Positions 3,886 to 56,733 of a DNA stretch of 64,000 bases are shown here, piece by piece. The notes under the pieces were generated by a model. The model made no database searches and was not told the origin of the DNA. It saw only the letters and a list, made by a program, of their open reading frames with translations. Each line of letters opens with the position of its first letter. Within the stretch, counting starts at the first letter, position 1. The stretch is taken from the NCBI GenBank assembly GCA_964394405.1, contig CAYMVY010000002.1, forward strand, positions 92-64,091, in the 5' to 3' direction. The position numbers were made by a program, and so were the translations under genes. Origin of the DNA: an uncultured Gammaproteobacteria bacterium. Its GTDB lineage: Bacteria > Patescibacteriota > Patescibacteriia > Magasanikbacterales > UBA922.

Positions 3886-3990
3886 AGTCCCTGTATAGTA
3901 CCGCAGTAGTAGGAGTCTTTCAAATGTACATACTGCACAACATGTGCGGAAGGTGTGTGTAACTGGAAAGTTTAAAAAAAATGTGCTACA

Positions 3991-4080
3991 GTGAGCCAAT
4001 AGTTCATAGCAAGAAAGCCAATAGGAATACGAATTCGTGTTTTTATCGACTATTGGCTATGAACTATTGGCTATGAACTA
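3991..4080. promoter_or_regulatory. Divergent dnaB/GT4 intergenic region carrying three copies of a TATTGGCTATGAAC motif (one inverted, two tandem)
   Basis: gccaatagttcatagc at 3995-4010 is the reverse complement of the junction of the tandem tattggctatgaac copies at 4051-4064 and 4065-4078. Confidence 0.5.
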
Positions 4081-4084
4081 AAAT

Positions 4085-9718: not shown

Positions 9719-9878
9719 CACTAATGCGATAGGATGAGGTTTGAGGTTAGTATTTTGGATTTTAATTATCGGCTCTGGTGAACAACCTTGATCCGACCCC
9801 TTTTCATTCTAAAGATTACAAGATGTAAGAATGAAGATTGGAATTTTCTTTTTACTTTTTACTTTTGACTTTACTATT

Positions 9879-10288: not shown

Positions 10289-10828
10289 ATGCCATCTCCA
10301 CTCAAAAAAGTTTCAGAAGAAATATTGCATGAAAATCCCTGGTGGAGATATAAGCATGATATTTTTTCTTTTCCTGATGGTAAAGAGGGGAGTTATTATT
10401 ATGGAGAGACATATGGTATGTCTATCATTGTTCCAATTTTGCCCGATGGGCGATTGGTGATGGTAAAACAATATCGATATTTAAATGACAGATACAGTAT
10501 TGAATTTCCTGGTGGAGGAATAAAAAAGGGAGAAGCCCCTTCGGCTGTTGCTAAGCGAGAATTGATGGAAGAAACTGGATTTTCTGCCAAAGAATTTATT
10601 AATATTTCAAATTTTGAACCTCACAATGGATTGTTCCTTGATTCGACTCATGTATTTATTGCCAAACAAATTTCACAAATTGATACTCATGAACCAAAGG
10701 GTGATGAGACAGAATTTATCGAAATCTTGCTGCGTCGACCAGATGAGATAGATCAGTTGATTCGGAATAATGAAATTTGGGATGGACAGACGCTCGCAAC
10801 GTGGGCAGTGGCACGGTATTATGTATAA
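10289..10828 (+). CDS. NUDIX hydrolase
   Basis: Nudix box GGGIKKGEAPSAVAKRELMEETG. Confidence 0.8.
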   Translation: MPSPLKKVSEEILHENPWWRYKHDIFSFPDGKEGSYYYGETYGMSIIVPILPDGRLVMVKQYRYLNDRYSIEFPGGGIKKGEAPSAVAKRELMEETGFSAKEFINISNFEPHNGLFLDSTHVFIAKQISQIDTHEPKGDETEFIEILLRRPDEIDQLIRNNEIWDGQTLATWAVARYYV

Positions 10829-10881
10829 ACATTGATTTAGACAGATTAAAAGGATTGAGACTGAAGATGTGTGTCCTTTAA

Positions 10882-10921
10882 AATCTGCGTAATCAATGTT
10901 AATCTGCGTAATCAATGTTTT
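10882..10921 (+). promoter_or_regulatory. Tandem duplicated motif AATCTGCGTAATCAATGTT x2 ending 2 nt before the rfbB start codon
   Basis: Exact 19-bp tandem copies at 10882-10900 and 10901-10919. The same half-sites TCTGCGTAATC and AATCAATGTT are found upstream of mraY. Confidence 0.6.
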
Positions 10922-12853: not shown

Positions 12854-12970
12854 TTTACCATTGACACCAGACCGGAAAAGTGATATTTTTTTTAATCTTG
12901 TCCATTTCGGATCGGATCCCTATATGCCTAGGGTAATCGGCTATACTGCATTACAGGAGAGGGTGCCACC

Positions 12971-13591
12971 ATGGCACATAATTCTTCGTGGATCGAGTGG
13001 TTCAATACGCAGTGTATCGTTTCGTCGATGATCGTCGTCCCGAAGCCTATTCAGACCGTGCGTGGATGGGTGATGGATCTTCTTCGGGGATGGTTCGGTC
13101 GGACGGATGGTAAGTTCTTCCAGATGGTCGGGTTCGAGATCTCGGTGCCGAAGCCTGGACAGCGGGAGATCCCGAGCTGGGACCAGCCTCTGATCCAGGA
13201 GGTGGGCGAGGGAGCTCTCGGACTTCTCAAGGTCCGGGGAGAGGATCTGTACCTGGTCTCTGCCAAGGCCGAGCCGGGCAACAAGTCCAGAGGTCGGGTC
13301 CTCCTCGCGCCTAGCCTGCAGGCTTCCCGCTCCAACCTCGAGCAGGCGCATGGTGGCACCCTGCCGCCGCGTGCCGAATTCGCTCGAGAGTCGGGCGTCA
13401 AGTGGGTCGACTTCCTCAAGGATGGTGGCCGCTTCTTCGAGAGCACCAACCAGGCCGCGGTGATCGAGGTCGACTACTTCCATCCGAACTCGAACGAGCG
13501 ATGGTTCAGTCGCTACGAGCTCAGGGAGGCTCTCCTTCGCGGTGTGTGCAACGCACACCTTCGAGAGCTGCTCGCGCTCGCGTTCATCTGA
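12971..13591 (+). CDS. Single-domain NDP-hexose 2,3-dehydratase-like protein (Hexose_dehydrat family; Nudix-like fold), high-GC, with SD AGGAGAGG
   Basis: Motifs recalled for the TylX3/EvaA/EryBVI family: GKFFQMVGFEISV, WDQPLIQEVGEGALGLL, LVSAKAEPGN, LAPSLQASRSN..HGG, DGGRFFESTNQAAVIEV. It is 206 aa, half of the usual two-domain enzyme. It shows ~60% GC against a ~40% background. Confidence 0.6.
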   Translation: MAHNSSWIEWFNTQCIVSSMIVVPKPIQTVRGWVMDLLRGWFGRTDGKFFQMVGFEISVPKPGQREIPSWDQPLIQEVGEGALGLLKVRGEDLYLVSAKAEPGNKSRGRVLLAPSLQASRSNLEQAHGGTLPPRAEFARESGVKWVDFLKDGGRFFESTNQAAVIEVDYFHPNSNERWFSRYELREALLRGVCNAHLRELLALAFI

Positions 13592-13603
13592 GATAGAACG
13601 CTC

Positions 13604-13716
13604 GTAGATGTTCTTTTGTGGCCGTATCGGGGGGAGATACATCTCGATACGGCATCTGCAAAAAAGCCTTTCTTCAAGGGCTTTTTTGTTTTCAAGTTTA
13701 TTGATAATAGGCTTGA
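13604..13716. repeat. Left copy of a ~110-bp direct repeat flanking ORF 13773..14324; contains a palindrome and terminator-like hairpin
   Basis: gttcttttgtg...ccgtatcg/cgatacgg palindrome...acggcatctgcaaaaaagcctttcttcaagggcttttttgtttt...tattgataataggcttgac aligns with 14323-14455. Confidence 0.7.
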
Positions 13717-13775
13717 CTTTTTTGTTATATATGCTAATATCCTCTGTCCATCTGACCAGAAGGAGGTTCGAAATG
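13714..13775 (+). promoter_or_regulatory. Canonical sigma70-like promoter (TTGACT N15 TAATAT) and SD AAGGAGG upstream of ORF 13773
   Basis: ttgacttttttgttatatatgctaatat, then ccagaaggaggttcgaaATG. Confidence 0.55.
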
Positions 13776-14324
13776 GACGGGGCAATGTATGAGATACAAC
13801 AGGCAGAAATAGTTCGGGCGCTGAAAATGCTTCCGAACGGGAATGGTCCGCTGCCACACGACATCTTCGTTCAGATCGCACGCGCGTGGTACCTCATCGC
13901 CTTCGAGGCCGTACTCTTGCGCAAGGGGCAGGGTGGCATCGAGGTCTATCTGACTCAACGCGATCTGAGGGACGCGTTCTACCCTGGGGAGTGGCATGCG
14001 CCGGGTTCCATTCTCCTGCCTCGTGAGGAGGATGCTGACGTGGCTCGGCGGCTCGGCAAGAGGGAGTTCAAGAGCCCGATCACGGACAGCTCGTTGGTCG
14101 GGTGCAAGTTCCACCAAGAAGCACGGGGGTGGATGCTCTCGATGATCTTCCTCACCACGGTTCCGGACCTGTCGCACGCTGGTGGCACCTGGTACCCGGT
14201 CGACCGTCTGCCGAAGAATACCGTCTCGTCCCATGTGGACTTCATCATCCCCATGGCAGTTGCGGCCTTCAAGCGGCGGCACGGGTGGCGTGCCTGGGTC
14301 GGGAAGCTGCTCGGTCTGGTGTAG
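13773..14324 (+). CDS. High-GC Nudix-fold-like hypothetical protein (degenerate Nudix box)
   Basis: PGEWHAPGSILLPREEDADVARRLGKREF approximates GX5EX7REUXEEXGU but is off-register. GC content is high. It has a strong SD and its own promoter. Internal ATG at 13773 was chosen over the tracked 13608. Confidence 0.55.
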   Translation: MDGAMYEIQQAEIVRALKMLPNGNGPLPHDIFVQIARAWYLIAFEAVLLRKGQGGIEVYLTQRDLRDAFYPGEWHAPGSILLPREEDADVARRLGKREFKSPITDSSLVGCKFHQEARGWMLSMIFLTTVPDLSHAGGTWYPVDRLPKNTVSSHVDFIIPMAVAAFKRRHGWRAWVGKLLGLV

Positions 14325-14455
14325 TCGTTCTTTTGTGAAAAATTAGGGGTTGCCCTACCGGAGTGAAATAATCTTCGGTACGGCATCTACAAAAAAGCCT
14401 TTATTTTAAGGGCTTTTTTGTTTTACAAAAGCCTATTGGTTTGATAGGATTACCC
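14323..14455. repeat. Right copy of the ~110-bp direct repeat flanking ORF 13773..14324
   Basis: gtcgttcttttgtg...taccgg..cggta palindrome...acggcatctacaaaaaagcctttattttaagggcttttttgtttta...tattggtttgataggattac. Confidence 0.7.
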
Positions 14456-14488
14456 TGTATATGCGTTATACTCTATAACTTATTTTTT

Positions 14489-15553
14489 ATGTTAGATTCA
14501 CTTACTCAAATTAAAAAAATTGATACTGAAAACATGCTCGGCAGTTTGCAACTACTCCATACACAAGTAGCAGAAGTTGCTCAGAATGCAGAGGGTTTGA
14601 CTATCCCTTCAGCGTATAAAAAAATTGACCGAATAGTAGTTTTTGGCATGGGTGGATCTGCTCTTGGTGGGCATATTATTCAATCCTTATATCGAAAAGA
14701 ATTGAAATACCCACTTGAGATTGTGAATGGGTATGAAGTGCCTGGGTATGTGAATGCAAAAACATTGGTTATTTTATCCAGCTATTCTGGCACGACTGAA
14801 GAAGTATTATTTGTAGCTGAACTTGTGCGGGCACGAAAAGCAAAGATTGTGGTAATCAGTGCGGGCGGTGATTTGGCACAGTTTGCACAGAAACACAAAT
14901 ATCCGGCTTTGATTTTTTCAACTGAGAATAATCCCTGTGGATCTCCACGTATGGGTCTCGGATATTCAATCATTGGACAGTTGATTCTTCTTTCAAAATT
15001 TGGTGTTGTAAAAATTTCATCAAAACAAATTCAAAACATTATTAAGGTGCTTGCCGAGTATGACACACTCTATGGTGTTCTTACTCCAGAAAAAGAAAAT
15101 TTTGCAAAGCAATTGGGGAGAAAGACGATTGATCGAAGTGTATGGTATGTGGGAAGTGAACATCTACTTGGGAGCGCACATACCGCAGCAAATCAGATGA
15201 ATGAGAATGGAAAACGTATGAGCGGATATTTTGCATTACCTGAACTCAACCATCATTTGATGGAAGGTATGATGTATCCGAAGACAAATAAGAATACGTT
15301 ACTTTTTGTCCTGATTGAATCATCCTTGTATTATGCTCGCGTGCAGAAGCGATACGAAGTAACGAGAAAGGTGTTGGAAAAGAATCATATTGCACATACA
15401 TTGTATCGTGTAAAAGAAACTGATGCGTTATTGCAGGCATGCGAATGTTTGGTATTTTTCAGTTATGTGAGTTATTACTCAGGACTCTTGAAAAAGATTG
15501 ATCCGACTGCGATTCCGTTTGTGGATTATTTTAAGCGTGAACTGTCAAAATAG
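14489..15553 (+). CDS. Bifunctional phosphoglucose/phosphomannose isomerase (SIS domain, PGI/PMI family)
   Basis: Tandem SIS-domain signatures: IVVFGMGGSALGG and a second VWYVGSEHLLGSAHTAANQMNENGK. Archaeal-type PGI/PMI architecture. Internal ATG 14489. Confidence 0.7.
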   Translation: MLDSLTQIKKIDTENMLGSLQLLHTQVAEVAQNAEGLTIPSAYKKIDRIVVFGMGGSALGGHIIQSLYRKELKYPLEIVNGYEVPGYVNAKTLVILSSYSGTTEEVLFVAELVRARKAKIVVISAGGDLAQFAQKHKYPALIFSTENNPCGSPRMGLGYSIIGQLILLSKFGVVKISSKQIQNIIKVLAEYDTLYGVLTPEKENFAKQLGRKTIDRSVWYVGSEHLLGSAHTAANQMNENGKRMSGYFALPELNHHLMEGMMYPKTNKNTLLFVLIESSLYYARVQKRYEVTRKVLEKNHIAHTLYRVKETDALLQACECLVFFSYVSYYSGLLKKIDPTAIPFVDYFKRELSK

Positions 15554-15632
15554 AACACGGATGACACGGGTCTAACGGATTTTATTGCATTATCCGTGAT
15601 AACCCGTGTTACCCGTTCAATCCGCGTTCTAT
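15551..15632. repeat. Array of ~9-bp units (AACACGGAT / ACCCGTGTT types) arranged convergently, between the PMI and GT2 genes
   Basis: aacacggat gacacgggt ctaacggatt | atccgtgat aacccgtgtt acccgttca atccgcgttc. A homologous array with opposite arrangement lies at 31869-31958. Confidence 0.65.
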
Positions 15633-15643
15633 TAATTAAGATT

Positions 15644-16501
15644 ATGCGAGTATCTGTTATTACGGTGACCTGGAATAGTAAGGAGTTTATTTTCAACCAA
15701 ATTGAATCTGTTAAGCGTGCGGCACAGAATATTCAGATTGAGCAGATTGTAGTTGATAATGCATCGACTGATGGGACTGTCGAGGTAATACAAGAGAGAT
15801 TTTCTGATGTTATAGTGATTGCAAATAAAGAAAATAAAGGATTCGGTGCAGCGAATAATCAGGGTGTGGAGATTTCGAAAGGGGAGTATGTATTGTTTCT
15901 CAATCCTGACATGAAGTTGGAACCAGGATCACTCGATATATTTGTTGATTGGATGGATACAAATCCAAAGGTTGGTATTGCGAGTCCAAAATTGGTTGAT
16001 GAGCAAGGTGTACTTAATTTGAACACAACTCCCCGTCGATTCCCACGAGTGTGGGAACAGATTGCGTTGATTGTTAAATTACCCCACCTTTTCCCCTCAT
16101 TTCTTGACGGGTATCGAATGAAGGGGTTTGATAGTACTAGAGAACAAGAGGTGGATTCGGTACAGGGTTCGTGCATGCTGGTACGAAGAGAATTGATTGA
16201 AAAATTGGGGTATGCCTTCGATCTTCGATATTTTATCTGGTATGAGGATGTCGATCTTTGTAGGGAGGCATATCGGCTGGGATACGTGGTTATGTATACG
16301 CCGGTCATTAGTGCGGTTGATTATAGTGGGCAGAGTTTTAAAAAACGGACGACTTTGTGGAAACAAAAACAATTTACTCGATCCATGCTTGTTTATTTTC
16401 AAAAATGGGAACCATGGTGGAAGTGGGTATGGATCGCAGTATTTAGACCAGTAGGAATTGGGATCGTCTGGATAGGGGAAAAAGTAAAAAGTAAAAAGTA
16501 A
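15644..16501 (+). CDS. Glycosyltransferase family 2
   Basis: MRVSVITVTWNS...DNASTDGT...NKGFGAANNQG...YVLFLNPD is the GT-A DxD-type fold. Confidence 0.85.
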   Translation: MRVSVITVTWNSKEFIFNQIESVKRAAQNIQIEQIVVDNASTDGTVEVIQERFSDVIVIANKENKGFGAANNQGVEISKGEYVLFLNPDMKLEPGSLDIFVDWMDTNPKVGIASPKLVDEQGVLNLNTTPRRFPRVWEQIALIVKLPHLFPSFLDGYRMKGFDSTREQEVDSVQGSCMLVRRELIEKLGYAFDLRYFIWYEDVDLCREAYRLGYVVMYTPVISAVDYSGQSFKKRTTLWKQKQFTRSMLVYFQKWEPWWKWVWIAVFRPVGIGIVWIGEKVKSKK

Positions 16502-16515
16502 AAAATATTTTTTAT

Positions 16516-17595
16516 ATGCAGAAGTTGGTTATACAGCTGGTGACTTGGAACGGAAAAAAGTATATTCCGTATTTGTTTGATTCACTCAGGAAGCAAACAT
16601 TTAAAGATTTTTATTTGTATATTTTGGACAATGGATCAACTGATGGAACTCCAGAAGCAATCGATAGAGAATTACAAAATTTTCAGTTTGAATATACGTT
16701 TGAAAGGAACGAGAAAAATATGGGATTTGCAGGAGGGCATAATCAGATATATAAAGTCGCAAGTCGCAAGTCGCAAGTCGAAAGTTTCGAATATATACTT
16801 TTGTTGAATCAAGATATATATCTTATACCCGATTGTATTGACAAAATGGTGAATTTTTTAGATGCAAATCAAAATGCATCTGCAGTAAGTCCGAGGCTTA
16901 TGCGGTGGAATTTTGAAGAAGTTCATGATGGTGTAGAGAAAAGTTTTAGTTTTTTTATTGATTCACTGGGACTCCGGGTTTTTCGCAATCGTCGTGTCAT
17001 TGAAAAATACGCAGGAAAAACCTGGGAAGAGAAAAAATCAAGACTGGAATTATCATTTCGCACGCATGACGACGCAATGGAAGTTTTTGGAGTTTCTGGA
17101 GCATTGCCCATGTTTCGACGCAGCTCGCTTGAAGTTGTGAGTTTTAGTGACGGAACTTTTTTTGATGAATGGTATCAATCGTATAAAGAAGATATTGATC
17201 TTGCATATCGATTGAGAATCGCTGGCTTTCAATCATTTGTGTTGCTTAATGCAGTCGCATACCATGATCGATCCGCTGTCGGATTAGAGAGAATGGGTGA
17301 TCGTATTGCAGCTCTGAATAAAAAGAAACAGTCAGTATGGGTCAAATATAATAGTTATAAGAATCATCTCGTGACTATTTATAAAAATGAGTATTGGCAG
17401 AATCTCATCCTTGATTTTTATCTTATTATATGGTATGAGTTGAAGAAGTTTTTGTATTATTTATTATTCGATCGCCCGGTACTCAAGGGTATTCTCGAGA
17501 TTTGGAGAGATAGAAAAAAACTTAAGTATATGAGAAAGGAGATTGTACATATGAGACGGGTTTCATGGAGAGAATTAAGAAAGTGGTGGAAATAG
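16516..17595 (+). CDS. Glycosyltransferase family 2 (rhamnosyltransferase-like) containing an in-frame heptanucleotide tandem repeat
   Basis: LVTWNGKKYIPY..DNGSTDGT..NMGFAGGHNQ...YILLLNQD. The 7-bp repeat lies at 16756-16783. Confidence 0.85.
   Translation: MQKLVIQLVTWNGKKYIPYLFDSLRKQTFKDFYLYILDNGSTDGTPEAIDRELQNFQFEYTFERNEKNMGFAGGHNQIYKVASRKSQVESFEYILLLNQDIYLIPDCIDKMVNFLDANQNASAVSPRLMRWNFEEVHDGVEKSFSFFIDSLGLRVFRNRRVIEKYAGKTWEEKKSRLELSFRTHDDAMEVFGVSGALPMFRRSSLEVVSFSDGTFFDEWYQSYKEDIDLAYRLRIAGFQSFVLLNAVAYHDRSAVGLERMGDRIAALNKKKQSVWVKYNSYKNHLVTIYKNEYWQNLILDFYLIIWYELKKFLYYLLFDRPVLKGILEIWRDRKKLKYMRKEIVHMRRVSWRELRKWWK
16756..16783 (+). repeat. Heptanucleotide tandem repeat (GTCGCAA)x3 + GTCGAAA inside the GT2 coding sequence
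   Basis: aagtcgcaagtcgcaagtcgcaagtcgaaag. 3x7=21 nt keeps the frame. It encodes a short insertion relative to paralogous GT2s in the window. Confidence 0.8.
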
Positions 17596-17598
17596 CGT

Positions 17599-18432
17599 AT
17601 GAAAGATATTGGGGTAGTTATCGTTAATTATAAAATGAAAGAACACATTGAAAAATGTCTTACTTCGTTATTTCCGCAGATTGCACGTTCAACTCTCAAT
17701 ATTAGCGTCGTCGTTGTGGACAATGCGTCAGACGATCACATTAATCTTTTTTTACTTGAACATTTTCCTCAGGTTACTTGTGTAATGCTTCAGAAAAATG
17801 AGGGTTTTGGGAAAGCACAAAACGTTGGTATGAGAAGTATGGAAGCAAAATATTATTTTATTCTTAATCCAGATACCGTATTTACTGAAAATGATCGAAC
17901 CCTCGAGCGTTTGTATCATTTTATGGAATCACGTCCCAAAGTCGGAATGGCTGGTCCTAAATTGCTTAATTCTGATGGATCTCTCCAGCATTCATGTTGG
18001 CGTTTTCCTACGTTTTGGCAACCTTTGTTTAGTCGAACTCGATTGGGTGAAAAGGGGAGGGGTAAAATGATCTCTGATCATTATTTTATGAAAGATTTTG
18101 ATCATGAGTCTACGCGTCCAGTCGATGCTCTGATGGGTTCTGCAATGTTTGTGCGAGGAGAAGCAATTAAGAATGTCGGTAGATTTGATGAACGTTTTTG
18201 GATGTATTTTGAAGATGTGGATTGGTGTATTCGGATGTGGGAAGCAGGTTGGTTTGTGTATTATATCCATGATATTGTGTTAAAACATAGACATGGACGA
18301 GGTTCGGCTAAGGTTCCTGGAATTTTTCGAGCATTTTTCAAAAATAAACTTGCACGAGTACATTTTTTTAGTTGGATAAAGTATTTTTTGAAGTGGCGAG
18401 ATATACATCCGTATTACACCAGTAAATTTTAA
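17599..18432 (+). CDS. Glycosyltransferase family 2
   Basis: VVIVNYKMKEH..VVVVDNASDD..NEGFGKAQNVG..YFILNPD. Confidence 0.85.
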   Translation: MKDIGVVIVNYKMKEHIEKCLTSLFPQIARSTLNISVVVVDNASDDHINLFLLEHFPQVTCVMLQKNEGFGKAQNVGMRSMEAKYYFILNPDTVFTENDRTLERLYHFMESRPKVGMAGPKLLNSDGSLQHSCWRFPTFWQPLFSRTRLGEKGRGKMISDHYFMKDFDHESTRPVDALMGSAMFVRGEAIKNVGRFDERFWMYFEDVDWCIRMWEAGWFVYYIHDIVLKHRHGRGSAKVPGIFRAFFKNKLARVHFFSWIKYFLKWRDIHPYYTSKF

Positions 18433-18440
18433 CCTCTCGT

Positions 18441-19547
18441 ATGGATCAACTTAAACCAAAAATCGGTATTGTGTACCTACTGTATTATCATAATGAGACA
18501 TATATTGATGATATGGTTTCTTCTTTGCGGAAAATTACGTATCCCAAAGATAGGATTGAACTTATTATTGTTGCTAATCCACATGCTGACGAGGGTTCTT
18601 TTGTTCACTATATTGAATCAGCTGTTATGCCCCTTTCGGGCAATGAAATTCCGCATACCACAATACTCCCTCAGGAAAAGAATCTTGGGTTTGGTATAGG
18701 GAATAATGTAGGAACAAAATGGGCAATTGAACATGGGTGCGACTATGTATTTTTTCATAATAACGATGGTTTTTTGGCGACCAATGCATTTGAGCCACTA
18801 GTCGAAGCTTTTGCTTCGGACCCACAGATTGGCGCTGCACAGTCGCTTGTATTGCTCCATCCGGAGACTAATTTGCTCAATAGCGCGGGAAATTCCTTTC
18901 ACTATCTTGGTTTTGGGTTTTGCGATCAATATCGAGTGGATATTAAAAATGTATCATTTCCCCCAATTAAAGATGTAGATTATGCGAGTGGTGCCGCACT
19001 CATGGTTCGTTCTGATTTGATTAAAAAGTATGGTGGATGGGACACGGACTTTTTTATGTATCACGAAGATTTAGAGTGGGCATTTCGGTTGAGGATTCGT
19101 GGGTATAGGACTATTCTCGTCCGTGATTCGATTTTTTATCATAAATATCAATTTGGTAGAAGTATTGAAAAGTTTTTTTGGATGGAAAGAAATCGGCATG
19201 CAATCATGCTTATGTTTTTCAAAATTCCAACCCTCATTTTCCTTCTTCCCATGGGAATTATACTTGAAATTGGGTTGTGGTTTTTTACAATCAAAAATAA
19301 ATATGTCTCAAAACGGGTTGAAGTTTACAAGTATTGGCTTACTTGGAAAAATTGGAAGCTATGGCTCGAGAAGCGAAAAAAAATGCAATCTGAACGGGTT
19401 ATTTCTGATCGCCAACTATTGAAATATTCAGTTCCTGAAATCAAATTTCAAGAAACTGGGATACATAACCCTTTGCTTGTCTACATTGGTAATCCGATTA
19501 TGAAATTGTACTACTGGATTGTAGTTAAGGGTTTGATTTGGTGGTAA
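18441..19547 (+). CDS. Glycosyltransferase family 2 with C-terminal membrane segment
   Basis: IVYLLYYHNE..NLGFGIGNNVG..DYVFFHNND, with a hydrophobic C-terminal region. Confidence 0.8.
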   Translation: MDQLKPKIGIVYLLYYHNETYIDDMVSSLRKITYPKDRIELIIVANPHADEGSFVHYIESAVMPLSGNEIPHTTILPQEKNLGFGIGNNVGTKWAIEHGCDYVFFHNNDGFLATNAFEPLVEAFASDPQIGAAQSLVLLHPETNLLNSAGNSFHYLGFGFCDQYRVDIKNVSFPPIKDVDYASGAALMVRSDLIKKYGGWDTDFFMYHEDLEWAFRLRIRGYRTILVRDSIFYHKYQFGRSIEKFFWMERNRHAIMLMFFKIPTLIFLLPMGIILEIGLWFFTIKNKYVSKRVEVYKYWLTWKNWKLWLEKRKKMQSERVISDRQLLKYSVPEIKFQETGIHNPLLVYIGNPIMKLYYWIVVKGLIWW

Positions 19548-23397: not shown

Positions 23398-23522
23398 ATT
23401 TTTAACGCAAAACTCAAATGTCAAAACGAAAAACTATAACTAAAAATTTAAAACTAACATACGATGTATAAAGTTTTAGATTTGAGTTATAGTTTTGAAC
23501 TTTGAGTTTTCAGTTTTGACTC
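23398..23522. repeat. ~125-bp palindromic dispersed element (AAACTCAAA / TTTGAGTTATAGTTT family), copy 1
   Basis: The left arm aaaactcaaatgtcaaaacgaaaaactataact mirrors the right arm agttatagttttgaactttgagttttcagttttg. Related copies lie at 33298-33402, 56599-56696 and 60096-60155. Confidence 0.7.
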
Positions 23523-24810: not shown

Positions 24811-25164
24811 ATGCTTCATATTTCAGGAATTGTAGTTGAGGGAGAGAAGCGAGGGCGCGTCTTGGGATTTCCTACTGCGAATCTTGAGTTTAAGAAGCGT
24901 CTACATATCAGCCCAGGTATCTATGCCGGGTGGGTGATTGTGGGAAAGAAGAAGTACCTGGCAGGTCTCTATATTCCAGAGCCTATGAATCGAGTTGAAG
25001 CGCATGTGCTCGATTATACCGGTGAGTCACTGTATGGGGTGTTTATTGAAGTTGAAGCAGTACAGAAAGTGAGTGAGATCGAGAAGCATGATTCTGATGA
25101 GGAATTAGTTAAGAAAATTAAGAGTGATATTGAGATGGTGAGGGAGGTGTTGGGGAAGTCATAA
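24811..25164 (+). CDS. Riboflavin kinase domain protein (RibF C-terminal-like)
   Basis: GEKRGRVLGFPTANL motif. Internal ATG at 24811 chosen, because the tracked start overlaps ctpA. Confidence 0.7.
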   Translation: MLHISGIVVEGEKRGRVLGFPTANLEFKKRLHISPGIYAGWVIVGKKKYLAGLYIPEPMNRVEAHVLDYTGESLYGVFIEVEAVQKVSEIEKHDSDEELVKKIKSDIEMVREVLGKS

Positions 25165-25191
25165 AGTCCATAAAGTCGAAAGTCAGAAAGT

Positions 25192-30125: not shown

Positions 30126-30130
30126 TGTTA

Positions 30131-30166
30131 GCTGGGTTTTCTAAGTTTGCTGAGTTGGCTAAGTTA
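30131..30166. repeat. 9-bp tandem units (RAGTTNKCT x4), intergenic copy
   Basis: gggttttct aagtttgct gagttggct aagttaaga. A related array lies in frame inside the Elp3-like gene at 34919-34958. Confidence 0.6.
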
Positions 30167-30183: not shown

Positions 30184-31431
30184 ATGAGTTTTCATGAGAA
30201 ACAATCTACACGGGAACCACTGGCGTACCGCATGCGACCGAGAAATTTTGATGAGTATGTGGGGCAGGAAAAGCTTACGGGTAAGAACTCTTCTTTGCGG
30301 TCCATGATTGAGAGAGGTGTAGTACCTCCTATGATGCTCTGGGGACCACCTGGGGTCGGGAAGACGAGTCTCGCGTCGCTTATTTCAGAAGTAGCAGGAT
30401 TACCCTTTGTTACGCTTTCAGCTGTTGAAAGCGGAAAGAAGATGTTGACTGAAGTTGTGCGTCAGGCAGAAGAGCTTTTCCAGAAGGAAGGTAAACGCAC
30501 CATTCTTTTTGTTGATGAAATTCATCGTTGGAATAAGGCACAGCAGGATGCACTATTACCGTATGTAGAGCGAGGGACGGTCATACTGATTGGCGCGACT
30601 ACTGAGAATCCGTCATTTGAAATTATTTCTCCGCTATTATCTCGTACCCGAGTATTTATATTGGAACGTTTGGAGAGCGAGCATATTATTACCATTATTG
30701 ATCGTGCATTGAAAGATGAGGAAAGGGGATTAGGAAAAATGAATATCAAACTTGGGTCTGATGTACTTGACTACATTGCTGAAATTTCAGGTGGTGATGC
30801 ACGAGTAGCCTTGAATGCGCTTGAGCTTGCGTATGTTTCAAAATCTCACACGAAAAAAAAGACTGGTGAGATCGTTATTGATGAAAAAGATATCAAAGAA
30901 GCACTACAGCGGACACATGTAATTTTTGATAAAAAAGGTGAAGAATTTTATAATCTTATTTCCGCTTTGCACAAATCAATGCGGGGGAGTGATCCGAATG
31001 CTTCATTGTATTGGCTTGCGCGCATGCTTGAGGGTGGGGCAGATCCACTCTATATTGCTCGGCGTGTGCTTCGATTTGCAAGCGAGGATATTGGTATGGC
31101 GAATAGTGAGGCTATGATCCAGGCAAATGCAGTGTATGACGCAGTTCATAAGATTGGCATGCCTGAGTGCGCGGTGCATCTCGCTCAGGCGGTTGTGTAT
31201 TGTGCGAAGTCGAAGAAATCAAACGCTCTATATCGAGCCTATGGATTAGCTGCGGCTGACGCAAAGAATACGTCACATCTCGGAGTACCGATTCATCTTC
31301 GTAATGCTCCAACCAAGTTGATGAAAGATATTGGGTATGGGAAAGAGTATAAATATAATCCGGATTATGACGGAGAAGTTGAGCAGGATTATTTTCCTCC
31401 TGAATTAAAAAAAAGAGACTATTTTTCTTAA
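30184..31431 (+). CDS. rarA: Replication-associated recombination protein A (AAA+ ATPase)
   Basis: Walker A GPPGVGKTSLA. Walker B ILFVDEIHR. MgsA C-terminal domain. Confidence 0.9.
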   Translation: MSFHEKQSTREPLAYRMRPRNFDEYVGQEKLTGKNSSLRSMIERGVVPPMMLWGPPGVGKTSLASLISEVAGLPFVTLSAVESGKKMLTEVVRQAEELFQKEGKRTILFVDEIHRWNKAQQDALLPYVERGTVILIGATTENPSFEIISPLLSRTRVFILERLESEHIITIIDRALKDEERGLGKMNIKLGSDVLDYIAEISGGDARVALNALELAYVSKSHTKKKTGEIVIDEKDIKEALQRTHVIFDKKGEEFYNLISALHKSMRGSDPNASLYWLARMLEGGADPLYIARRVLRFASEDIGMANSEAMIQANAVYDAVHKIGMPECAVHLAQAVVYCAKSKKSNALYRAYGLAAADAKNTSHLGVPIHLRNAPTKLMKDIGYGKEYKYNPDYDGEVEQDYFPPELKKRDYFS

Positions 31432-31862
31432 ATAGTCTCCACAGTGATTGTCCGTTCAGTGGTAGTTCCAGCTTTTAAGGTTACTACTATCAATTTTCTA
31501 TTTTCAAGCAATTTTTCTACTTTTTCGGGCCACTCAATAATGGTGAGTGTATCTGGTCTACCTAAATATTCTTCAATTCCAATTTCTATCAAATCTTCGT
31601 AGGTTTCAAGTCTATAGGTATCCACATGCACCAATTCTTTGATTGTTTCATGGTCTACGGGATAGACACTCATGAGTGTGAATGTGGGACTCATCACTTC
31701 TTTTTCAATTCCCAATCCTTCGGCGATTCCTTTGGTAAAGGCTGTCTTTCCTGCTCCTAAATCTCCTTTGAGAATTATAATATCTCCACCAGTGAGTGTA
31801 CGAGCAAGCTCTGCACCGATTTTTTTGGTTTCGTGGGCTGAGTGGGAGATATGTGTGGACAT
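31428..31862 (-). CDS. tsaE: tRNA threonylcarbamoyladenosine biosynthesis protein TsaE
   Basis: GDIIILKGDLGAGKTAFTKGI P-loop. SPTFTL motif. Internal ATG at 31862 chosen, because tracked N-terminal codons translate the repeat array. Confidence 0.8.
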   Translation of the reverse strand: MSTHISHSAHETKKIGAELARTLTGGDIIILKGDLGAGKTAFTKGIAEGLGIEKEVMSPTFTLMSVYPVDHETIKELVHVDTYRLETYEDLIEIGIEEYLGRPDTLTIIEWPEKVEKLLENRKLIVVTLKAGTTTERTITVETI

Positions 31863-31868: not shown

Positions 31869-31958
31869 ATTACCCGTGTATACCCGTGTTAATCCGTACA
31901 ACCCGCGTTCCATTCAATAGAACACGGATGACACGGATTAAACGGATTGGGGCGGATT
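31869..31958. repeat. Second array of ~9-bp ACCCGTGTT / AACACGGAT units, divergent arrangement, upstream of tsaE
   Basis: tacccgtgta tacccgtgtt aatccgtaca acccgcgttc ... agaacacggat gacacggat taaacggatt ggggcggatt. Homologous to 15551-15632. Confidence 0.65.
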
Positions 31959-31967: not shown

Positions 31968-33221
31968 TTATTTAGCTAGTTCCGGATACAGTGGGAATTT
32001 ATCAGTAAGATTTTTTACTTCACTTTTTATTTCACTCAACTTTGCTTCATTAGATGAATTACTAAGAGCCTGATCAATGAACTGTGCTACTAGCTTCATC
32101 TCTTCTTCCTTGAATCCTCGAGTAGTGAGTGCTGGAGTTCCAAGACGAATTCCACTCGGGTCCATCGCTGATCGTGCATCATCTGGAATCATGTTTTTGT
32201 TTACCGTAATTCCTGCCTTATCAAGGGCTTTTTCTCCCTCTGATCCACTGATTCCCTTACTCGTCACCACATCAATCAGAAGCAGATGGTTATCAGTTCC
32301 ACCAAACATGAGTTTGTATCCGAGTGTATTGAACTCTGATTCAAGTACTTTTGCATTTTTTCTGATTTGCTTTGCGTACTCTTTGAATGCAGGTTCGAGC
32401 GCTTCTTTGAATGCTACTGCTTTTGCTGCAATATTATTCTCATGCGGACCACCTTGGAATCCAGGGAATACTGATTTATCAATCGCTTTTGCAATTTCTT
32501 TTTTGCACATAATCATTCCACCGCGAGGTCCACGAAGTGTTTTGTGTGTGGTGGTCGTCACTACATCAAATAGGGGAACCGGATTATTCATTTCTCCTCC
32601 AGCAATGAGTCCTGCAATATGAGCAATGTCTGCCATGGTGAGTGCACCGACTTCATCAGCAATCTTTTTTATTTCTGCATATTCGATTTCTCGTGAATAT
32701 GCGCTGTAGCCCACCAAAATTAATTTTGGCTTGTGTTCAATCGCCATGGCACGAAGATTATCTAGATCAATTTTTCCTTCGGCATTCGTTTTGTATCTAA
32801 TAAAATTAAACACTTTGGTCATGTGTGTGACTGGGTGACCGTGAGTCAGGTGTCCGCCGTGTGACAAGTCCATACCAAGAATGGTGTCGCCTGGATTCAA
32901 TAGCCCAAAATAAACTGCAATATTTGCAGGTGCTCCGGATAATGGCTGTACATTCACATGTTCGGCACTAAATAATTGTTTTGCACGATCAATGGCAAGT
33001 GTTTCAATTTCGTCAATAAATTCACATCCACCATAGTATCGTTTGCCTGGATAACCTTCAGAATATTTATTGGTGGCAATTGATCCAAGAGCTTCGAGTA
33101 CTGGGAGTGAGACAAAGTTTTCAGAAGGGATCATCTCCAATCCTGTCTCTTGTCGATTCCGTTCACGTTCGAGTGCTGAGTATAGGGAAGGGTCAAATTC
33201 TTTGATTTTTTGTTTGTTCAT
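31968..33221 (-). CDS. glyA: Serine hydroxymethyltransferase
   Basis: SHMT motifs: EMIPSENF, PLP-lysine region VTTTTHKTLRGPRGG. Confidence 0.92.
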   Translation of the reverse strand: MNKQKIKEFDPSLYSALERERNRQETGLEMIPSENFVSLPVLEALGSIATNKYSEGYPGKRYYGGCEFIDEIETLAIDRAKQLFSAEHVNVQPLSGAPANIAVYFGLLNPGDTILGMDLSHGGHLTHGHPVTHMTKVFNFIRYKTNAEGKIDLDNLRAMAIEHKPKLILVGYSAYSREIEYAEIKKIADEVGALTMADIAHIAGLIAGGEMNNPVPLFDVVTTTTHKTLRGPRGGMIMCKKEIAKAIDKSVFPGFQGGPHENNIAAKAVAFKEALEPAFKEYAKQIRKNAKVLESEFNTLGYKLMFGGTDNHLLLIDVVTSKGISGSEGEKALDKAGITVNKNMIPDDARSAMDPSGIRLGTPALTTRGFKEEEMKLVAQFIDQALSNSSNEAKLSEIKSEVKNLTDKFPLYPELAK

Positions 33222-33297
33222 AAAATAGCTAATAACAATAAGCAGAATAAGTAGTAAGCAATTCGGATTTAGAATTACAACATATTATATATTGAAT

Positions 33298-33402
33298 AAG
33301 CTCAAAACGTAAAACTCAAAGCTTAAAACTGGAACTAAAAACTCAAAATTTTAAGCTTTGAGTTATAGTTTTAAGTTTTGATATTTAAGCTTTGAGTTTT
33401 TT
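33298..33402. repeat. Palindromic AAACTCAAA/TTTGAGTT dispersed element, copy 2 (overlaps the 3' end of the NUDIX gene)
   Basis: ctcaaaacgtaaaactcaaagcttaaaactggaactaaaaactcaaaattttaagctttgagttatagttttaagttttgatatttaagctttgagtttt. Confidence 0.7.
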
Positions 33403-33802
33403 TTAAATACTCCTCAACAACAGCTCTTACATTTGGAGCACAATCTTCCGGTAGATCATTAATATCAAACCAGTTCCATTCAACAATATTTTCACCTGGT
33501 TTTATTTCTCCAATTCGCTTTGCAAGATAGTGGATAAGAATCACTAGTTTTTCTGGATGGTCTGGGCGATGTACGAGCATTGGTTTTAATGGTTGTATGA
33601 TTTCAACTTTAATTCCCATTTCTTCCATTACTTCACGTTTACATGCTTCTTCAAGTGAAATATCAAAAGATTCTACTTCTCCGCCAGGAAAAAGCCAGGT
33701 GGTAATTCGACCATTTTCTTTCTTCTCTTTATTAAGCAAAACTTTGCCATTTTCAATAATGACTGGTCCCGAGGCAATAATTGTTTGATCTGGTAGATAC
33801 AT
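33371..33802 (-). CDS. NUDIX hydrolase
   Basis: Nudix box GGEVESFDISLEEACKREVMEEMG. Confidence 0.8.
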   Translation of the reverse strand: MYLPDQTIIASGPVIIENGKVLLNKEKKENGRITTWLFPGGEVESFDISLEEACKREVMEEMGIKVEIIQPLKPMLVHRPDHPEKLVILIHYLAKRIGEIKPGENIVEWNWFDINDLPEDCAPNVRAVVEEYLKKTQSLNIKT

Positions 33803-34654: not shown

Positions 34655-36352
34655 TTATGTTATTTCTTTAATCATGTATGTACCTTCTTTTTTGTAGCCA
34701 AGCTTTTCATAATATCCACGTACACCTACTCCGGAAATCACAGCGAGTTTTTTTACTTTATTTTCTTTGCTAATACGCTCAGCTTCAGCCATTAGTTTTT
34801 TACCGTATCCTTTGTGTTGACTACCGATTGTTTTTGTTTTTCCGATTCCGATCATTTGTCCATATACGTGTAGTTCTCGGATGAAAGCGCTGTTTGTTAG
34901 CTCGGGCATGAGTTTTTTTAAGTTTTCTAAGTTGGCTGAGTTAGCTAAGTTTTCTGAGTGGGGAATGCGTAAACGTAAGAAACCGTAGACGGCGATGCGA
35001 TTTTTGTCTTCCATTGAAATGAAATATTCTGTTCCGCCAATAGTTTCATATGTGTCAACAAAAATTTGTGGTTCTTCGTTTTCATTAATATTATCTTTTT
35101 GTCGATAAATTTCTCGGCAACGCAGACATTCGCAATGCTTTCCTTCTTTCTTTAATTGATATTCAAGCATCTCGCGCAAGTTGGTAATGATATTTCCATT
35201 CTCAATTTCTGTTGCAGGGATATCGCGAATGAGTCGAGAAATGCGGCAATAGCGGGGAGTCGCGAGTTTCATTTCGAGCAATGCCTTGAATAATCCTTCA
35301 TCGCCATACGATTTATATCGTCCATCAAGAAACCACTGATACAGCTCTGCGGATTTAATAACCGTGTTTGGATAAATTTTGATCATGTCTGGGCGAAGGC
35401 CTGGATCCATGAATATTTCTTTGTACATTTCTACATCATGCTCAGGGCTACTCCCTGGTAAATCAGGCATGAAATGCAAATCTACTTTGAAACCCGCTTC
35501 GCGAAGTAGGTAGATTGCCTCGCGGAATTGTTGTACTGTATGTCCGCGTTTGATTAATTCAAGAATTTTATTGTCTGTTGCCTGCAGACCTAATTCAATT
35601 CGGGTACAACCCTGAAGGCGCATATGGTGAATCGTTTTTCCCGAAATTGCGTCTGGTCGAGTCTCAAGTGTGAGACCAATAATACGATGTCCAGTAGATT
35701 CATTAATCGTTTGCTCTTTATCAAGAGCTTCCTGTAATTCAGTAAGAGGTCTATCATTCCAATATTCCTCACTGGTTGGACCAATTGGAACTTCACGGCT
35801 GAAATCATTGCATGCTTTGAATGATTCGAGAATGAACCAGTATTGATATTTAAGCGGATATGCATTCCATGTCCCACCTTTTAAAATATACTCAATTTTG
35901 TCAGTAGGGTGACCATTCACCTCAAGCATTTCGATGCGTCTCTTCATCTGTTCGTATGGGCTAAAATCAAGCCGTAGTGCTCGTGCTGCGGCGGGTTCGG
36001 TTGCAATATAGCTTTTGGGCATGCGGAGCTCAGTAGGGCAGTATACGCATTTTCCGGGGCAGGTATAGGGCTTTACCAATGAGGTTATAATTACTACTCC
36101 AGAAAGGGTACGTACATTTGCTTTGCGAAGAAAAAATTCCATTTGTTCGTCTGGTTCTACACTTTTCTTTTCGAGTAGACTCTGGTAGGCTATGAGCAGT
36201 TGTTGGTTTGCAGGTTGTTTGATTTTTAATTTCGAAGCGCCAAGTCTTTTTGCATCATCAAAATCCTCTTTGGTTTGAGGCTTGTATGCGACGATATATT
36301 CCATTAATTTTTCTGCTATTTCATTCATACGTATGTCGAAAGTTGACTTCAT
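34655..36352 (-). CDS. Elp3-like radical SAM / GNAT acetyltransferase (bacterial Elp3 homologue)
   Basis: Radical-SAM CxxxCxxC (CPGKCVYC). C-terminal GNAT (GYGKKLMAEAERI). 565 aa. It contains an in-frame 9-bp tandem insertion (ENLANSANLENL). Confidence 0.75.
   Translation of the reverse strand: MKSTFDIRMNEIAEKLMEYIVAYKPQTKEDFDDAKRLGASKLKIKQPANQQLLIAYQSLLEKKSVEPDEQMEFFLRKANVRTLSGVVIITSLVKPYTCPGKCVYCPTELRMPKSYIATEPAAARALRLDFSPYEQMKRRIEMLEVNGHPTDKIEYILKGGTWNAYPLKYQYWFILESFKACNDFSREVPIGPTSEEYWNDRPLTELQEALDKEQTINESTGHRIIGLTLETRPDAISGKTIHHMRLQGCTRIELGLQATDNKILELIKRGHTVQQFREAIYLLREAGFKVDLHFMPDLPGSSPEHDVEMYKEIFMDPGLRPDMIKIYPNTVIKSAELYQWFLDGRYKSYGDEGLFKALLEMKLATPRYCRISRLIRDIPATEIENGNIITNLREMLEYQLKKEGKHCECLRCREIYRQKDNINENEEPQIFVDTYETIGGTEYFISMEDKNRIAVYGFLRLRIPHSENLANSANLENLKKLMPELTNSAFIRELHVYGQMIGIGKTKTIGSQHKGYGKKLMAEAERISKENKVKKLAVISGVGVRGYYEKLGYKKEGTYMIKEIT
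34919..34958. repeat. 9-bp tandem units (RAGTTNKCT x4) within the Elp3-like coding region
   Basis: aagttttct aagttggct gagttagct aagttttct gagt, translated in frame as ...ENLANSANLENL.... Confidence 0.6.
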
Positions 36353-37850: not shown

Positions 37851-37856
37851 CACGTT

Positions 37857-37943
37857 CTTCCCCCTTTCCCAAGGGGGAAGACAGAAGGGGGTATAAGCCT
37901 ATTCTACCCCACCCTGTCCCTCCCCTTGAGAAAGGGGAGGGAA
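37857..37943. repeat. Two adjacent GC-rich hairpins (CTTCCCCCTT..AAGGGGGAAG and GTCCCTCCCCTT..AGGGGAGGGAAC) between convergent genes; member of the CCCTCCCCT/AGGGGAGGG repeat family
   Basis: The same caccctg..ccctcccct-loop-aggggaggg core is found at 493-522 and 8053-8084. Confidence 0.7.
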
Positions 37944-37951
37944 CGCACTGA

Positions 37952-39679: not shown

Positions 39680-41056
39680 TTATCTACTTAGTTTACTCAC
39701 CAGCTCTTCGATCATACCACGAAACCCATGGCTACCGAGGAAGACGACAGAATCTCCAGGCTGAGCTTCTTCTATAATTGTCTGAATGAGTATGTGATCA
39801 TCATCAATATATTGTGTATGTGAATGTGTTTTTGTAATGATTTGAGCCAAGCCTTCGCCATCAAATGGTTTGTCTGCGTCTTTGTCAGTTTTGATGATTG
39901 TGAGACGGGGGATGATGACTATATCTGCGTCGGTAAATGCATGTGCATATCCTTCAGTTGCGCTTGGCTGCCTATTTCCAGTGTTTGGTTCAAAAATTGC
40001 AATTACTTTGCCTGCGGTGATTTTTTTCACGGTTGCGAGAGCTGACGATGCTTTGGTGGGGGAATGAGCAATATCATCAATAACAGTAACGTCACCTTCG
40101 TAGCGTTTTTCCATACGACGTTTGAGTCCTTGGTGAGCAGTGATTGAAGCGATAATTGATTCAGGTTCAATTCCAATCGTGTGGGCGAGCGCAAAACAGC
40201 CACTAATATTTTCTGCCTGATATTCACTTACGAAGGGAGTTTTGATCTGAAATGTTTTTTTGTCATGAGTAATCGTGAAAGTCATTCCATTCTTATCGCT
40301 TACAATATTAGAATACATGTAGTCATTGTGTTCACTTAGTCCATAGGTCACCACTTTGCATTCACTGTATTCTCTGTATTGTTCCGCACGTTCTGAAAGT
40401 ACGAGAAGTCCATCTTTCGGAAGAGAGCGTACGAGTGTCTCAAATGTATCAAAATATTTTTGTTCTGTTGGGTAAATATCTGCATGGTCCCATTCGACTG
40501 CGGTTAGGAGCAAGTGTGTTGGATTGTAGTGCGCAAATTTGGGGCTATTGTCCCAACGTGCGGTTTTGTATTCATCACCTTCGAGCACACTCCAGCCACT
40601 TTTTCCAATCTGTGCAGATGGAGTTTCATCTATACTTAGGCCACCAAACATATAGCTGGGGTCGTACTCTGCATCAGTAAGAATTTGAGCCATGAGCGCT
40701 GAAGAGCTGGTTTTTCCATAGGTCCCTGCACAGACAATTGAATTTTTCTTGAGGAAAAATTTTTCAATCAGTTCCGGATAAGAAACATAGGGAATGTTGT
40801 TTTCCTGTACACATATCCATTCTGGATTGGTAGAAGATGCGACGTTCCCAACAACTACGAGATCAGGATTTCCATTTGCGCACATTTTTTGTGGGTGCCA
40901 ACCTGGATAATAAGGGACGCCATTATCTTTCAGATATGTTGAAATAGGAGGAAAAAATCCTTTGTCACTGCCAGTCACATCGTGTCCAGCTTTTTTGAGG
41001 GCGAGTGCGAGACCTCCCATGGCTACGCCGCAGATTCCGATAAAGTGGATTTTCAT
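39680..41056 (-). CDS. Mur ligase family protein (MurC/Mpl-like UDP-N-acetylmuramate--amino acid ligase)
   Basis: N-terminal IHFIGICGVAMGGLALAL, P-loop GTYGKTSSSAL, 458 aa. Confidence 0.75.
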   Translation of the reverse strand: MKIHFIGICGVAMGGLALALKKAGHDVTGSDKGFFPPISTYLKDNGVPYYPGWHPQKMCANGNPDLVVVGNVASSTNPEWICVQENNIPYVSYPELIEKFFLKKNSIVCAGTYGKTSSSALMAQILTDAEYDPSYMFGGLSIDETPSAQIGKSGWSVLEGDEYKTARWDNSPKFAHYNPTHLLLTAVEWDHADIYPTEQKYFDTFETLVRSLPKDGLLVLSERAEQYREYSECKVVTYGLSEHNDYMYSNIVSDKNGMTFTITHDKKTFQIKTPFVSEYQAENISGCFALAHTIGIEPESIIASITAHQGLKRRMEKRYEGDVTVIDDIAHSPTKASSALATVKKITAGKVIAIFEPNTGNRQPSATEGYAHAFTDADIVIIPRLTIIKTDKDADKPFDGEGLAQIITKTHSHTQYIDDDHILIQTIIEEAQPGDSVVFLGSHGFRGMIEELVSKLSR

Positions 41057-41089
41057 AAAGTCAAAAGTAAAAACGCAAAAGTAAAAAGA

Positions 41090-43970: not shown

Positions 43971-44052
43971 AACATTGATTTAGACTGATTGGAATACAAG
44001 ATTACGCAGACTAGATCTGTTTAAATCAATTTAAATCTGCATAATCAATGTT
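43971..44052. promoter_or_regulatory. mraY upstream region carrying the same TCTGCGTAATC and AATCAATGTT(ATG) half-sites as the rfbB leader, plus a second full copy
   Basis: The minus strand reads ...agtctgcgtaatc N24 aatcaatgttATG. The plus strand at 44034-44052 reads aatctgcataatcaatgtt. Confidence 0.6.
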
Positions 44053-45537: not shown

Positions 45538-45549
45538 ATTTTTTTCGTC

Positions 45550-45604
45550 ATCCCCGTGAAAACGGGGATCTTTGAGTTTTTTAGATTCCCGCTTTCGCGG
45601 GAAT
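45550..45604. terminator. Two tandem tetraloop hairpins (ATCCCCGT-GAAA-ACGGGGAT and ATTCCCGC-TTTC-GCGGGAAT)
   Basis: The second hairpin is the reverse complement of the rplU terminator core ATCCCGCGAAAGCGGGAT at 931-948. Confidence 0.7.
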
Positions 45605-45619
45605 GACGTGAAATGTTAG

Positions 45620-56696: not shown

Positions 56697-56733
56697 TTTT
56701 CTATGCTATACTTTTCCTATAACTATTCTTCAT

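Follow-up and report, generated by a model that had tools for sequence, protein, structure and literature searches.

Two arrays of short repeated words, described here as copies of a dispersed palindromic repeat, lie in a 64,000-nucleotide stretch of contig CAYMVY010000002.1 (positions 92 to 64,091; hereafter the window). Both are intergenic: locus 1 (15549-15633) is flanked by genes for a sugar isomerase and a family 2 glycosyltransferase (GT2), and locus 2 (31871-31958) separates glyA, which encodes serine hydroxymethyltransferase (SHMT), from tsaE (Table 1). Each locus consists of two inverted copies of a single arm of ~42 nt, composed of AATRG followed by four CACGGAT-type words that are 9, 9 and 10 nt apart. 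The arms of locus 1 are arranged tail-to-tail, such that an F arm consisting of AATAGAACACGGAT GACACGGGT CTAACGGAT and then a fourth, degenerate word directly abuts a four-word R arm reading ATCCGTGAT AACCCGTGTT ACCCGTTCA ATCCGCGTTCTATT. The arms of locus 2 are arranged head-to-head with abutted termini, and its word cores (31872/31882/31892/31901 and 31925/31934/31943/31953) are spaced in mirror image, 10-10-9 / 9-9-10. An initial annotation of this DNA had described two arrays of 9-bp units with a strand switch in each, arranged convergently at one locus and divergently at the other, and the sequence reads as claimed at both. These two arrangements correspond to the tail-to-tail and abutted head-to-head configurations that recur in the family examined below.

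Table 1. Positions of the arms and flanking genes at the two window loci
Feature	Position	Strand	Remarks
SIS / bacterial PGI-type sugar isomerase	14489..15553	+	upstream of locus 1
Locus 1 F arm	15549..15591	+	AATAG terminus, words GAACACGGAT, GACACGGGT, CTAACGGAT; CGGRT cores at 15558, 15567, 15576
Degenerate fourth word/apex of locus 1 F arm	15582-15591	+	TTATTGCATT
Locus 1 R arm	15592..15633	+	arm reverse complement; cores at 15592, 15602, 15611, 15620; 3' end GTTCTATT
Family 2 glycosyltransferase (GT2)	15644..16501	+	downstream of locus 1; first in a run of four GT2 genes
tsaE	31428..31862	-	transcriptionally downstream of locus 2; start ATG 31862
Locus 2 R arm	31871..31914	+	TACCCGTGTA TACCCGTGTT AATCCGTACA ACCCGCGTTCCATT; ends GTTCCATT, CCATT terminus towards centre
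Locus 2 junction	31915	.	single base C between abutted termini (CCATT-C-AATAG)
Locus 2 F arm	31916..31958	+	AATAGAACACGGAT GACACGGAT TAAACGGAT TGGGGCGGATT; starts AATAGAAC
glyA (SHMT)	31968..33221	-	transcriptionally upstream of locus 2

The two loci are closely related in sequence. Their F arms are 91% identical, and the blocks that the initial annotation had noted as common to both include an exact 19-mer, TAGAACACGGATGACACGG, which occurs exactly twice (0.02 occurrences expected). A profile built from 126 arms of the family found outside the window detects the F arms of locus 2 (E = 8e-13) and locus 1 (E = 1.5e-11) and nothing else in the window. Likewise, a scan for word clusters across the window and 1.3 Mb of related loci from the Candidate Phyla Radiation (CPR) yielded just one additional true array. 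Because many other short tandem-word arrays occur in the window, local slippage or chance low-complexity sequence without relatives elsewhere could have been proposed as the origin of these loci. This explanation is refuted by the shared 19-mer, by a 35-nt exact match of the locus 2 F arm to an unrelated metagenome locus (L187; loci outside the window carry L numbers), and by the external copies, at least 120, that keep the word order. Within the window, ACCCG replaces ATCCG in five of the eight R-arm words, and both F arms are near-consensus. That the same combination of a near-consensus F arm and an ACCCG-rich R arm is present at both loci suggests that the two isomers derive from one F+R progenitor.

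The arrays are distinct from the genes that border them. The GT2 gene begins at ATG 15644, as indicated by a Pfam GT2 domain that starts at residue 4 and by an independent gene call that likewise gives 285 amino acids. For tsaE, an independent call gives 144 amino acids, and relatives begin at the aligned methionine. Since both gene starts are thereby confirmed to lie outside the arrays, the TRV/YTG repeats that had been read as arrays spilling into annotated N-termini are artefacts of open reading frame (ORF) calling. The element accounts for spurious N-terminal extensions of this type (TRV/YTG, ‘TRITRI’ and ‘IRVIRV’ peptides) in the annotation of metagenome-assembled genomes (MAGs). At its upstream end, locus 1 overlaps the isomerase gene, whose TAG stop codon (15551-15553) sits within the element terminus AATAG. 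The idea that the terminal TAG generally supplies the upstream gene's stop codon was considered and rejected, given that it does so only at locus 1 and a few other copies (5 of 113).

Copies outside the window were sought with a degenerate 26-mer, ACACGGATNACACGGRTNNAACGGAT, that fits both window F arms and an arm in a related CPR locus (L012). This pattern matches at least 120 metagenome contigs from several sequencing projects and sample series, plus three viral contigs. Among the matches listed, the GC content of host contigs ranges from 31 to 69%, an inverted R partner is located within 700 nt of 63 of 129 F arms, and the elements are 73-623 nt in length, mostly 73-210 nt. In one sample, seven contigs of 37-203 kb bear copies. 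The alternative raised in the initial annotation, that only two copies exist and that these are coding sequence in relatives, does not agree with this distribution.

Aligned copies yield the arm consensus (A)AT[AG]G-GAACACGGAT-GACACGGAT-TNAACGGAT-TTNCACGGAT, and the complete element carries terminal inverted repeats (AATRGRAC...GTYCYATT) like those of miniature inverted-repeat transposable elements (MITEs). The R arms that do not match the search pattern themselves (n = 66) are 85% conserved at the positions of the ACGGAT words compared with 64% at other positions. The 2-3 nt spacers between words are only 20-50% conserved and vary independently in the two arms. Moreover, only 29 deviations from the consensus are common to both arms of an element, versus 279 that are unshared. 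These findings indicate that word sequence is conserved rather than complementarity.

Three configurations are observed. Locus 1 exemplifies the tail-to-tail form (F-loop-R), in which the loop measures between about 0 and several hundred nt; locus 2 exemplifies the head-to-head form (R|F); and the third consists of solo arms. Head-to-head units join CYATT and AATRG termini with a spacer of ~0-2 nt, as read from the printed sequences. They occur in isolation in L088, L095, L137 (twice) and L173, and in L132 and L212 the same junction joins whole hairpins that are repeated in tandem every ~95 nt. In these latter two loci, the head-to-tail amplified hairpins (L132:1862-2560, with 8 copies, and L212:1-1399) are located beside a gene for a GxxExxY protein, a family considered further below. 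In seven loci of one metagenome (L098, L117, L129, L145, L165, L187 and L197), the CACGGAT hairpin is nested inside an outer inverted repeat, GGTAACTATTCAGC ... GCTGAATAGTTACC, which suggests composite, modular palindromes. A weak resemblance between the loop of locus 1 and the flanks of locus 2 was considered as a target-site duplication and was not reproduced in other head-to-head copies.

The orthologous sites of related genomes provide an additional view of the element. SHMT places the host in Candidatus Magasanikbacteria (CPR/Patescibacteria), with a best match of 96% protein identity. Three relatives (L002, L004 and L005) are syntenic with the window over ~20 kb, at ~70-86% nucleotide identity per block. 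Their glyA-tsaE spacers measure 14-25 bp and are devoid of the array; a fourth locus (L003) was left out of this comparison for its different ORF after glyA. A more distant relative (L012, SHMT 81% identical) has a CACGGAT hairpin of the tail-to-tail form in this spacer. Thus, when related genomes are checked at this position, as the initial annotation had proposed, the array is present in the window and in L012 and absent from L002, L004 and L005, a presence/absence polymorphism of the kind seen with MITEs. Because the closest relatives lack the array, the element is a lineage-specific insertion, and the pattern as a whole implies gain and loss over a short evolutionary scale rather than a part of the genes. 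A search for an empty site in other strains with identical flanking proteins returned the same sample only.

Taken together, these data establish the family as a dispersed, cross-phylum palindromic repeat of four-word arms that is polymorphic at orthologous sites. The arrays had been likened to iterons, operators or the terminal repeats of a small mobile element. Hexamer words that are conserved while their spacers are free, and that recur at about one helical turn, do resemble the 9-10 bp binding sites of a host regulator or a replication/partition protein, and locus 2 contains a single weak promoter-like match. However, the same arm is found beside unrelated genes in many phylogenetically distant hosts, which does not fit a host-specific operator or iteron function, and it is missing from orthologous spacers. 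Scans for promoters and terminators at both loci gave nothing above shuffled controls and zero terminator-like sites, and there is no origin-like switch of GC skew at either locus. The Rep- or ParB-like partner that had been suggested also failed to appear: no Rep, ParB or regulator gene recurs among 74 small ORFs adjacent to arms, and Pfam identifies no Rep or regulator gene among the eight genes flanking both loci. We therefore regard an operator or iteron array as very improbable. The mobile-element part of the earlier proposal is retained, given the spread of the arm across genomes, its absence from orthologous spacers and the nuclease ORF that it brackets in some loci. Overall, the loci look like selfish mobile DNA rather than operators, iterons or coding sequence.

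All copies are predicted to fold strongly as RNA, both window loci included. In locus 1 the R arm pairs with the F arm in a long imperfect hairpin (-37.0 kcal/mol, z = -6.7), and the transcribed (minus) strand of locus 2 forms a hairpin of -42.6 kcal/mol (z = -4.7), compared with -30.7 kcal/mol for the other strand. Folding of this strength (-37 to -43 kcal/mol, z = -4.7 to -6.7) raises the prospect of a host-selected RNA element, whose transcribed stem would serve the operon as an RNase III site, as an mRNA stabiliser or insulator, or as a terminator. Each locus is flanked by co-directional genes, the transcribed strand of locus 2 is the more stable by 12 kcal/mol through G.U pairs, and in some copies the arms enclose an ORF in the manner of the stems that direct processing of rRNA and of intervening sequences (IVSs), which RNase III cleaves (PMC11270868). 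Nevertheless, over 18 orientable copies there is no folding advantage for the sense strand (10 versus 8, p = 0.35), and the 29 shared against 279 unshared deviations noted above leave no sign of compensatory variation between arms. Furthermore, neither locus has a U-tract terminator, although canonical terminators are present elsewhere in the window, and the orthologous glyA-tsaE spacer of the closest relatives lacks the element. A host-selected role is therefore unlikely, and effects at the RNA level are treated as secondary because strand bias, compensatory variation and a U-tract are all lacking. As a separate observation, the R-arm words with ACCCG for ATCCG in the window produce G.U pairs on the minus strand only (n = 2).

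A candidate protein partner emerged from the genes next to the arms. Among the 74 small ORFs located no more than 60 nt from an arm, PDDEXK_3 is the sole recurrent Pfam family (8 members); the other neighbours belong to unrelated housekeeping families with one or two members each. Searches with hmmsearch place an ORF of the GxxExxY type in 10 arm-carrying loci that had been chosen only for the arm. Either this cargo lies between single arms, its start codon being reached by an F arm and its stop codon followed by an R arm, or it lies between two full hairpins. Three cargo proteins tested against TIGR04256 (‘GxxExxY protein’) gave E-values of 1e-36 to 1e-42, and one gave 4e-39 against PF13366 (PDDEXK_3). 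Copies that lack an ORF far outnumber those that bracket this gene, which encodes a minimal PD-(D/E)XK nuclease.

The association also holds when loci are sampled from the protein, regardless of repeats (three viral loci, eight protein look-ups and one SHMT-adjacent CPR relative, L028). Inverted word arrays flank the GxxExxY gene on both sides in all 12 of these loci. The words are of the CACNGAT type (CACGGAT/CACAGAT/CACTGAT) in nine loci, and the remaining three use CACAAAT (L028), CGCGAAAAG (L206) and CACGAAA (L207). The GxxExxY family is very large, as 7,998 of the 8,000 candidate clusters scored pass E <= 1e-10, and some cluster members are named by NCBI as Bacteroidales proteins. An AlphaFold model (pLDDT 89, pTM 0.82) has a PD-(D/E)XK core, in which D66, E76 and K78 are invariant. 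Its nearest solved folds, at modest TM-scores, are the Cas4 protein SSO0001 and lambda-type exonucleases. A Holliday-junction resolvase was considered as an identity for GxxExxY and was dropped when the fold search returned this generic Cas4/lambda-exonuclease core instead. Comparisons with PADLOC, PHROGs and PDB sequences revealed no homologue and only a marginal match to Cas4.

GxxExxY cassettes and CACGGAT hairpins are found repeatedly within sugar-nucleotide or polysaccharide operons. In L208-L217 and L222 the element is located downstream of a dTDP-sugar isomerase gene, followed in L208-L217 by a DegT aminotransferase gene; in L132 it comes after an RmlC-like ORF; and locus 1 of the window (region 12941-19547) is situated between the SIS/PGI gene and four GT2 genes. 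This placement could reflect a target preference or a role at the module junctions of variable glycan loci.

An arrangement in which arms bracket ORFs, with R|F junctions between adjacent units, is also reminiscent of an integron-type system in which GxxExxY and other genes would be cassettes and the elements attC-like recombination sites. The imperfect palindromes have an attC-like length and ends of the form ...AAC / GTT..., and attC core sites follow the consensus RYYYAAC / GTTRRRY. The element termini ATAGAAC / GTTCTAT do not fit this consensus, and the primary sequence is constant across phyla, unlike that of attC sites. In addition, no integrase and no transposase (including Y1) is present among the 25 families listed for the 74 arm-adjacent small ORFs, and the genes that flank locus 2 (glyA and tsaE) are core genes. 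An attC-like identity is consequently improbable. Likenesses to DnaA boxes, FokI sites and the tRNA T-loop, as well as to attC, were also weighed by eye and dropped.

On balance, we favour the interpretation that both window loci are ORF-less copies of a dispersed palindromic element of ~85-90 bp, which resembles MITEs and the hairpin-forming doublets of REP (repetitive extragenic palindromic) sequences known as REPINs, and which is probably non-autonomous and possibly serviced by GxxExxY. By analogy with the pairings of REPINs with RAYT proteins and of MITEs with transposases, the window copies would be non-autonomous kin of the GxxExxY cassettes. They may have entered two operon spacers after the lineage split from its nearest sequenced relatives. 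The conserved words would be read by a multimeric protein that spreads or maintains the element, GxxExxY being the sole candidate that recurs, and the head-to-head form may represent joined element ends, as at the junction of a circle or of a tandem dimer. If transcribed, the elements would fold into double-stranded RNA stems of ~35-40 bp within the PGI-GT2 and glyA-tsaE transcripts. Such stems might be targets of RNase III, presumably as a side effect rather than as the reason for the existence of the element.

Several points weigh against this interpretation. By hmmsearch there is no GxxExxY ORF within the 64-kb window, where both copies are of the ORF-less form. GxxExxY clades that are just 36% identical carry the same words and other members of the family carry different words, such that a simple specificity of protein for word is not evident. 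An equal possibility is that GxxExxY is a passenger homing into the hairpins. No target-site duplication is seen around the head-to-head forms or around the 29 short elements that were aligned, and the relatives have diverged too far for exact insertion boundaries to be mapped. Transposition has, to our knowledge, never been observed for this element family. Finally, the sampling pattern was derived from the window itself, and family-wide proportions are therefore biased.

A broader proposal is more tentative. The tandem words might constitute a recognition code for GxxExxY, and together with the hairpins they might define an HUH-independent class of palindromic mobile elements that parallels REPIN/RAYT, that crosses phyla (CPR, Bacteroidales and others), and that explains both other word-array hairpins and thousands of orphan GxxExxY genes. 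Palindromic non-autonomous repeats are known as a kind; the word-built arm is unusual and the nuclease partner undescribed. A search of Rfam, conducted on the window at gathering score and on locus 1 and a consensus copy at an E-value threshold, returned only sub-threshold generic-hairpin matches for the element. BLAST of the consensus element against plasmid and phage collections gave no match, for which the low-complexity filter may be responsible. In the open-access literature, as far as it is searchable, neither the element nor any connection of GxxExxY with flanking repeats is described. If our interpretation is correct, then it defines a family of palindromic repeats that spans phyla and is not represented in Rfam, and it offers genomic context and a testable function for GxxExxY/PDDEXK_3, a very large family of orphan nucleases. 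It would also mean that streamlined CPR genomes still carry several selfish hairpin repeat families inside core operons, where they may affect mRNA processing and, in polysaccharide loci, recombination.

Other repeats are plentiful in the window. Further intergenic word arrays are located at 2411-2486, 3990-4084, 9844-9874, 10825-10921, 16473-16506, 23404-23520, 25156-25191, 30127-30165, 33288-33409, 34913-34969, 41056-41089, 43971-44052, 56601-56700 and 60080-60157. They consist of tandem 6-19 nt words, such as AAAAAGT, CAAAAC/GTTTTG, GTTNGCTRAGTT, AGCCAATAGTTCAT and AATCTGCGTAATCAATGTT, and many are paired in inverted orientation and fold into long hairpins (the three folded have z = -4.3 to -7.4). 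Those at 23404 and 33300 are missing from the orthologous spacers of L002-L005. Given that their architecture is like that of the CACGGAT element and that words other than CACGGAT surround GxxExxY elsewhere, these arrays may share a superfamily. A palindrome of AGCCAATAGTTCAT words (4049-4080) has a 30-nt exact match in a Magasanikbacteria MAG whose SHMT is 77% identical (L021:2107-2136), which indicates a second dispersed, conserved repeat family in the phylum.

GC-rich REP-like hairpins are present at 490-520, 37853-37945 and 45545-45615, exemplified by ATTCCCGCTTTCGCGGGAATGAC and a GGGGA/TCCCC palindrome, and the type at 45545 has near-identical matches of 24-29 nt in three other CPR loci (L017, L035 and L078). 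Two consecutive ORFs are each followed by one copy of a 75-nt direct repeat (13618-13692 and 14349-14423, 73% identical), which comprises a conserved stem-loop (GGCCGTATCG...CGATACGGC) and then a canonical intrinsic terminator. This repeat may be a shared 3' untranslated region element or a small RNA. The sole Rfam family detected in the window is an AdoCbl-II (cobalamin) riboswitch aptamer on the minus strand at 63525-63591, with a score of 44.6 bits, above the gathering score of 36.5. In 31 of 32 bins of 2 kb the GC skew is positive, mostly at 0.1-0.24, whatever the orientation of the genes, and the whole window therefore lies on one replichore.

Comparison with known systems reveals partial likenesses in several directions. 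The word core ACGGAT fits the AYGGAY motif of the Rfam family TwoAYGGAY (RF01731). However, the match reaches just 21 bits (E = 0.67), far below the gathering score of 43, and AYGGAY sits in terminal loops in TwoAYGGAY, whereas the words of the element are in stems. Cyanobacteria have small dispersed repeats and short tandemly repeated repetitive (STRR) heptamers, which are likewise intergenic arrays of tandem short words; the words are often arranged as inverted pairs, and one genome holds several families of them. These repeats differ from the present element in phylum and in words, and are not known to be linked to GxxExxY. The IVSs of 23S rRNA (PMC11270868) resemble the element in having an inverted-repeat stem that encloses nothing or a small ORF of unknown function, and in a sporadic distribution that suggests horizontal transfer. 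Unlike IVSs, the window copies lie between protein-coding genes, the cargo is PDDEXK_3 rather than the 23S_rRNA_IVP four-helix bundle, and cleavage of the element by RNase III is hypothetical.

MITEs such as Correia/NEMIS, RUP, ERIC and Nezha are, like the element, small, ORF-less and palindromic or bounded by terminal inverted repeats; they are dispersed in intergenic DNA, often reside in operons, and can fold when transcribed. The element differs from them in lacking a detected target-site duplication and a cognate DDE transposase, in consisting essentially of two arms, and in the existence of the permuted head-to-head form.

REPIN families are, as far as is known, lineage-specific, whereas the arm sequence of the element crosses phyla. 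The arm is also a tandem of four words with free spacers rather than a single GC-rich REP, its partner is a PD-(D/E)XK protein (GxxExxY) rather than an HUH/Y1 RAYT, and no transposition intermediates are known for it. Because no RAYT gene accompanies the arms among the 74 adjacent small ORFs, the element is not a member of the REPIN/RAYT system. In other respects the correspondence is extensive. As with REPINs and the RAYT transposases that accompany them (Bertels and Rainey 2011; PMC3116915), short extragenic repeats are dispersed as hairpin-forming inverted doublets, singlets and doublets exist side by side with tandem clusters, and a small nuclease-type gene is flanked by repeats while ORF-less copies are far commoner. 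REPIN/RAYT is thus the closest known system in its way of working.

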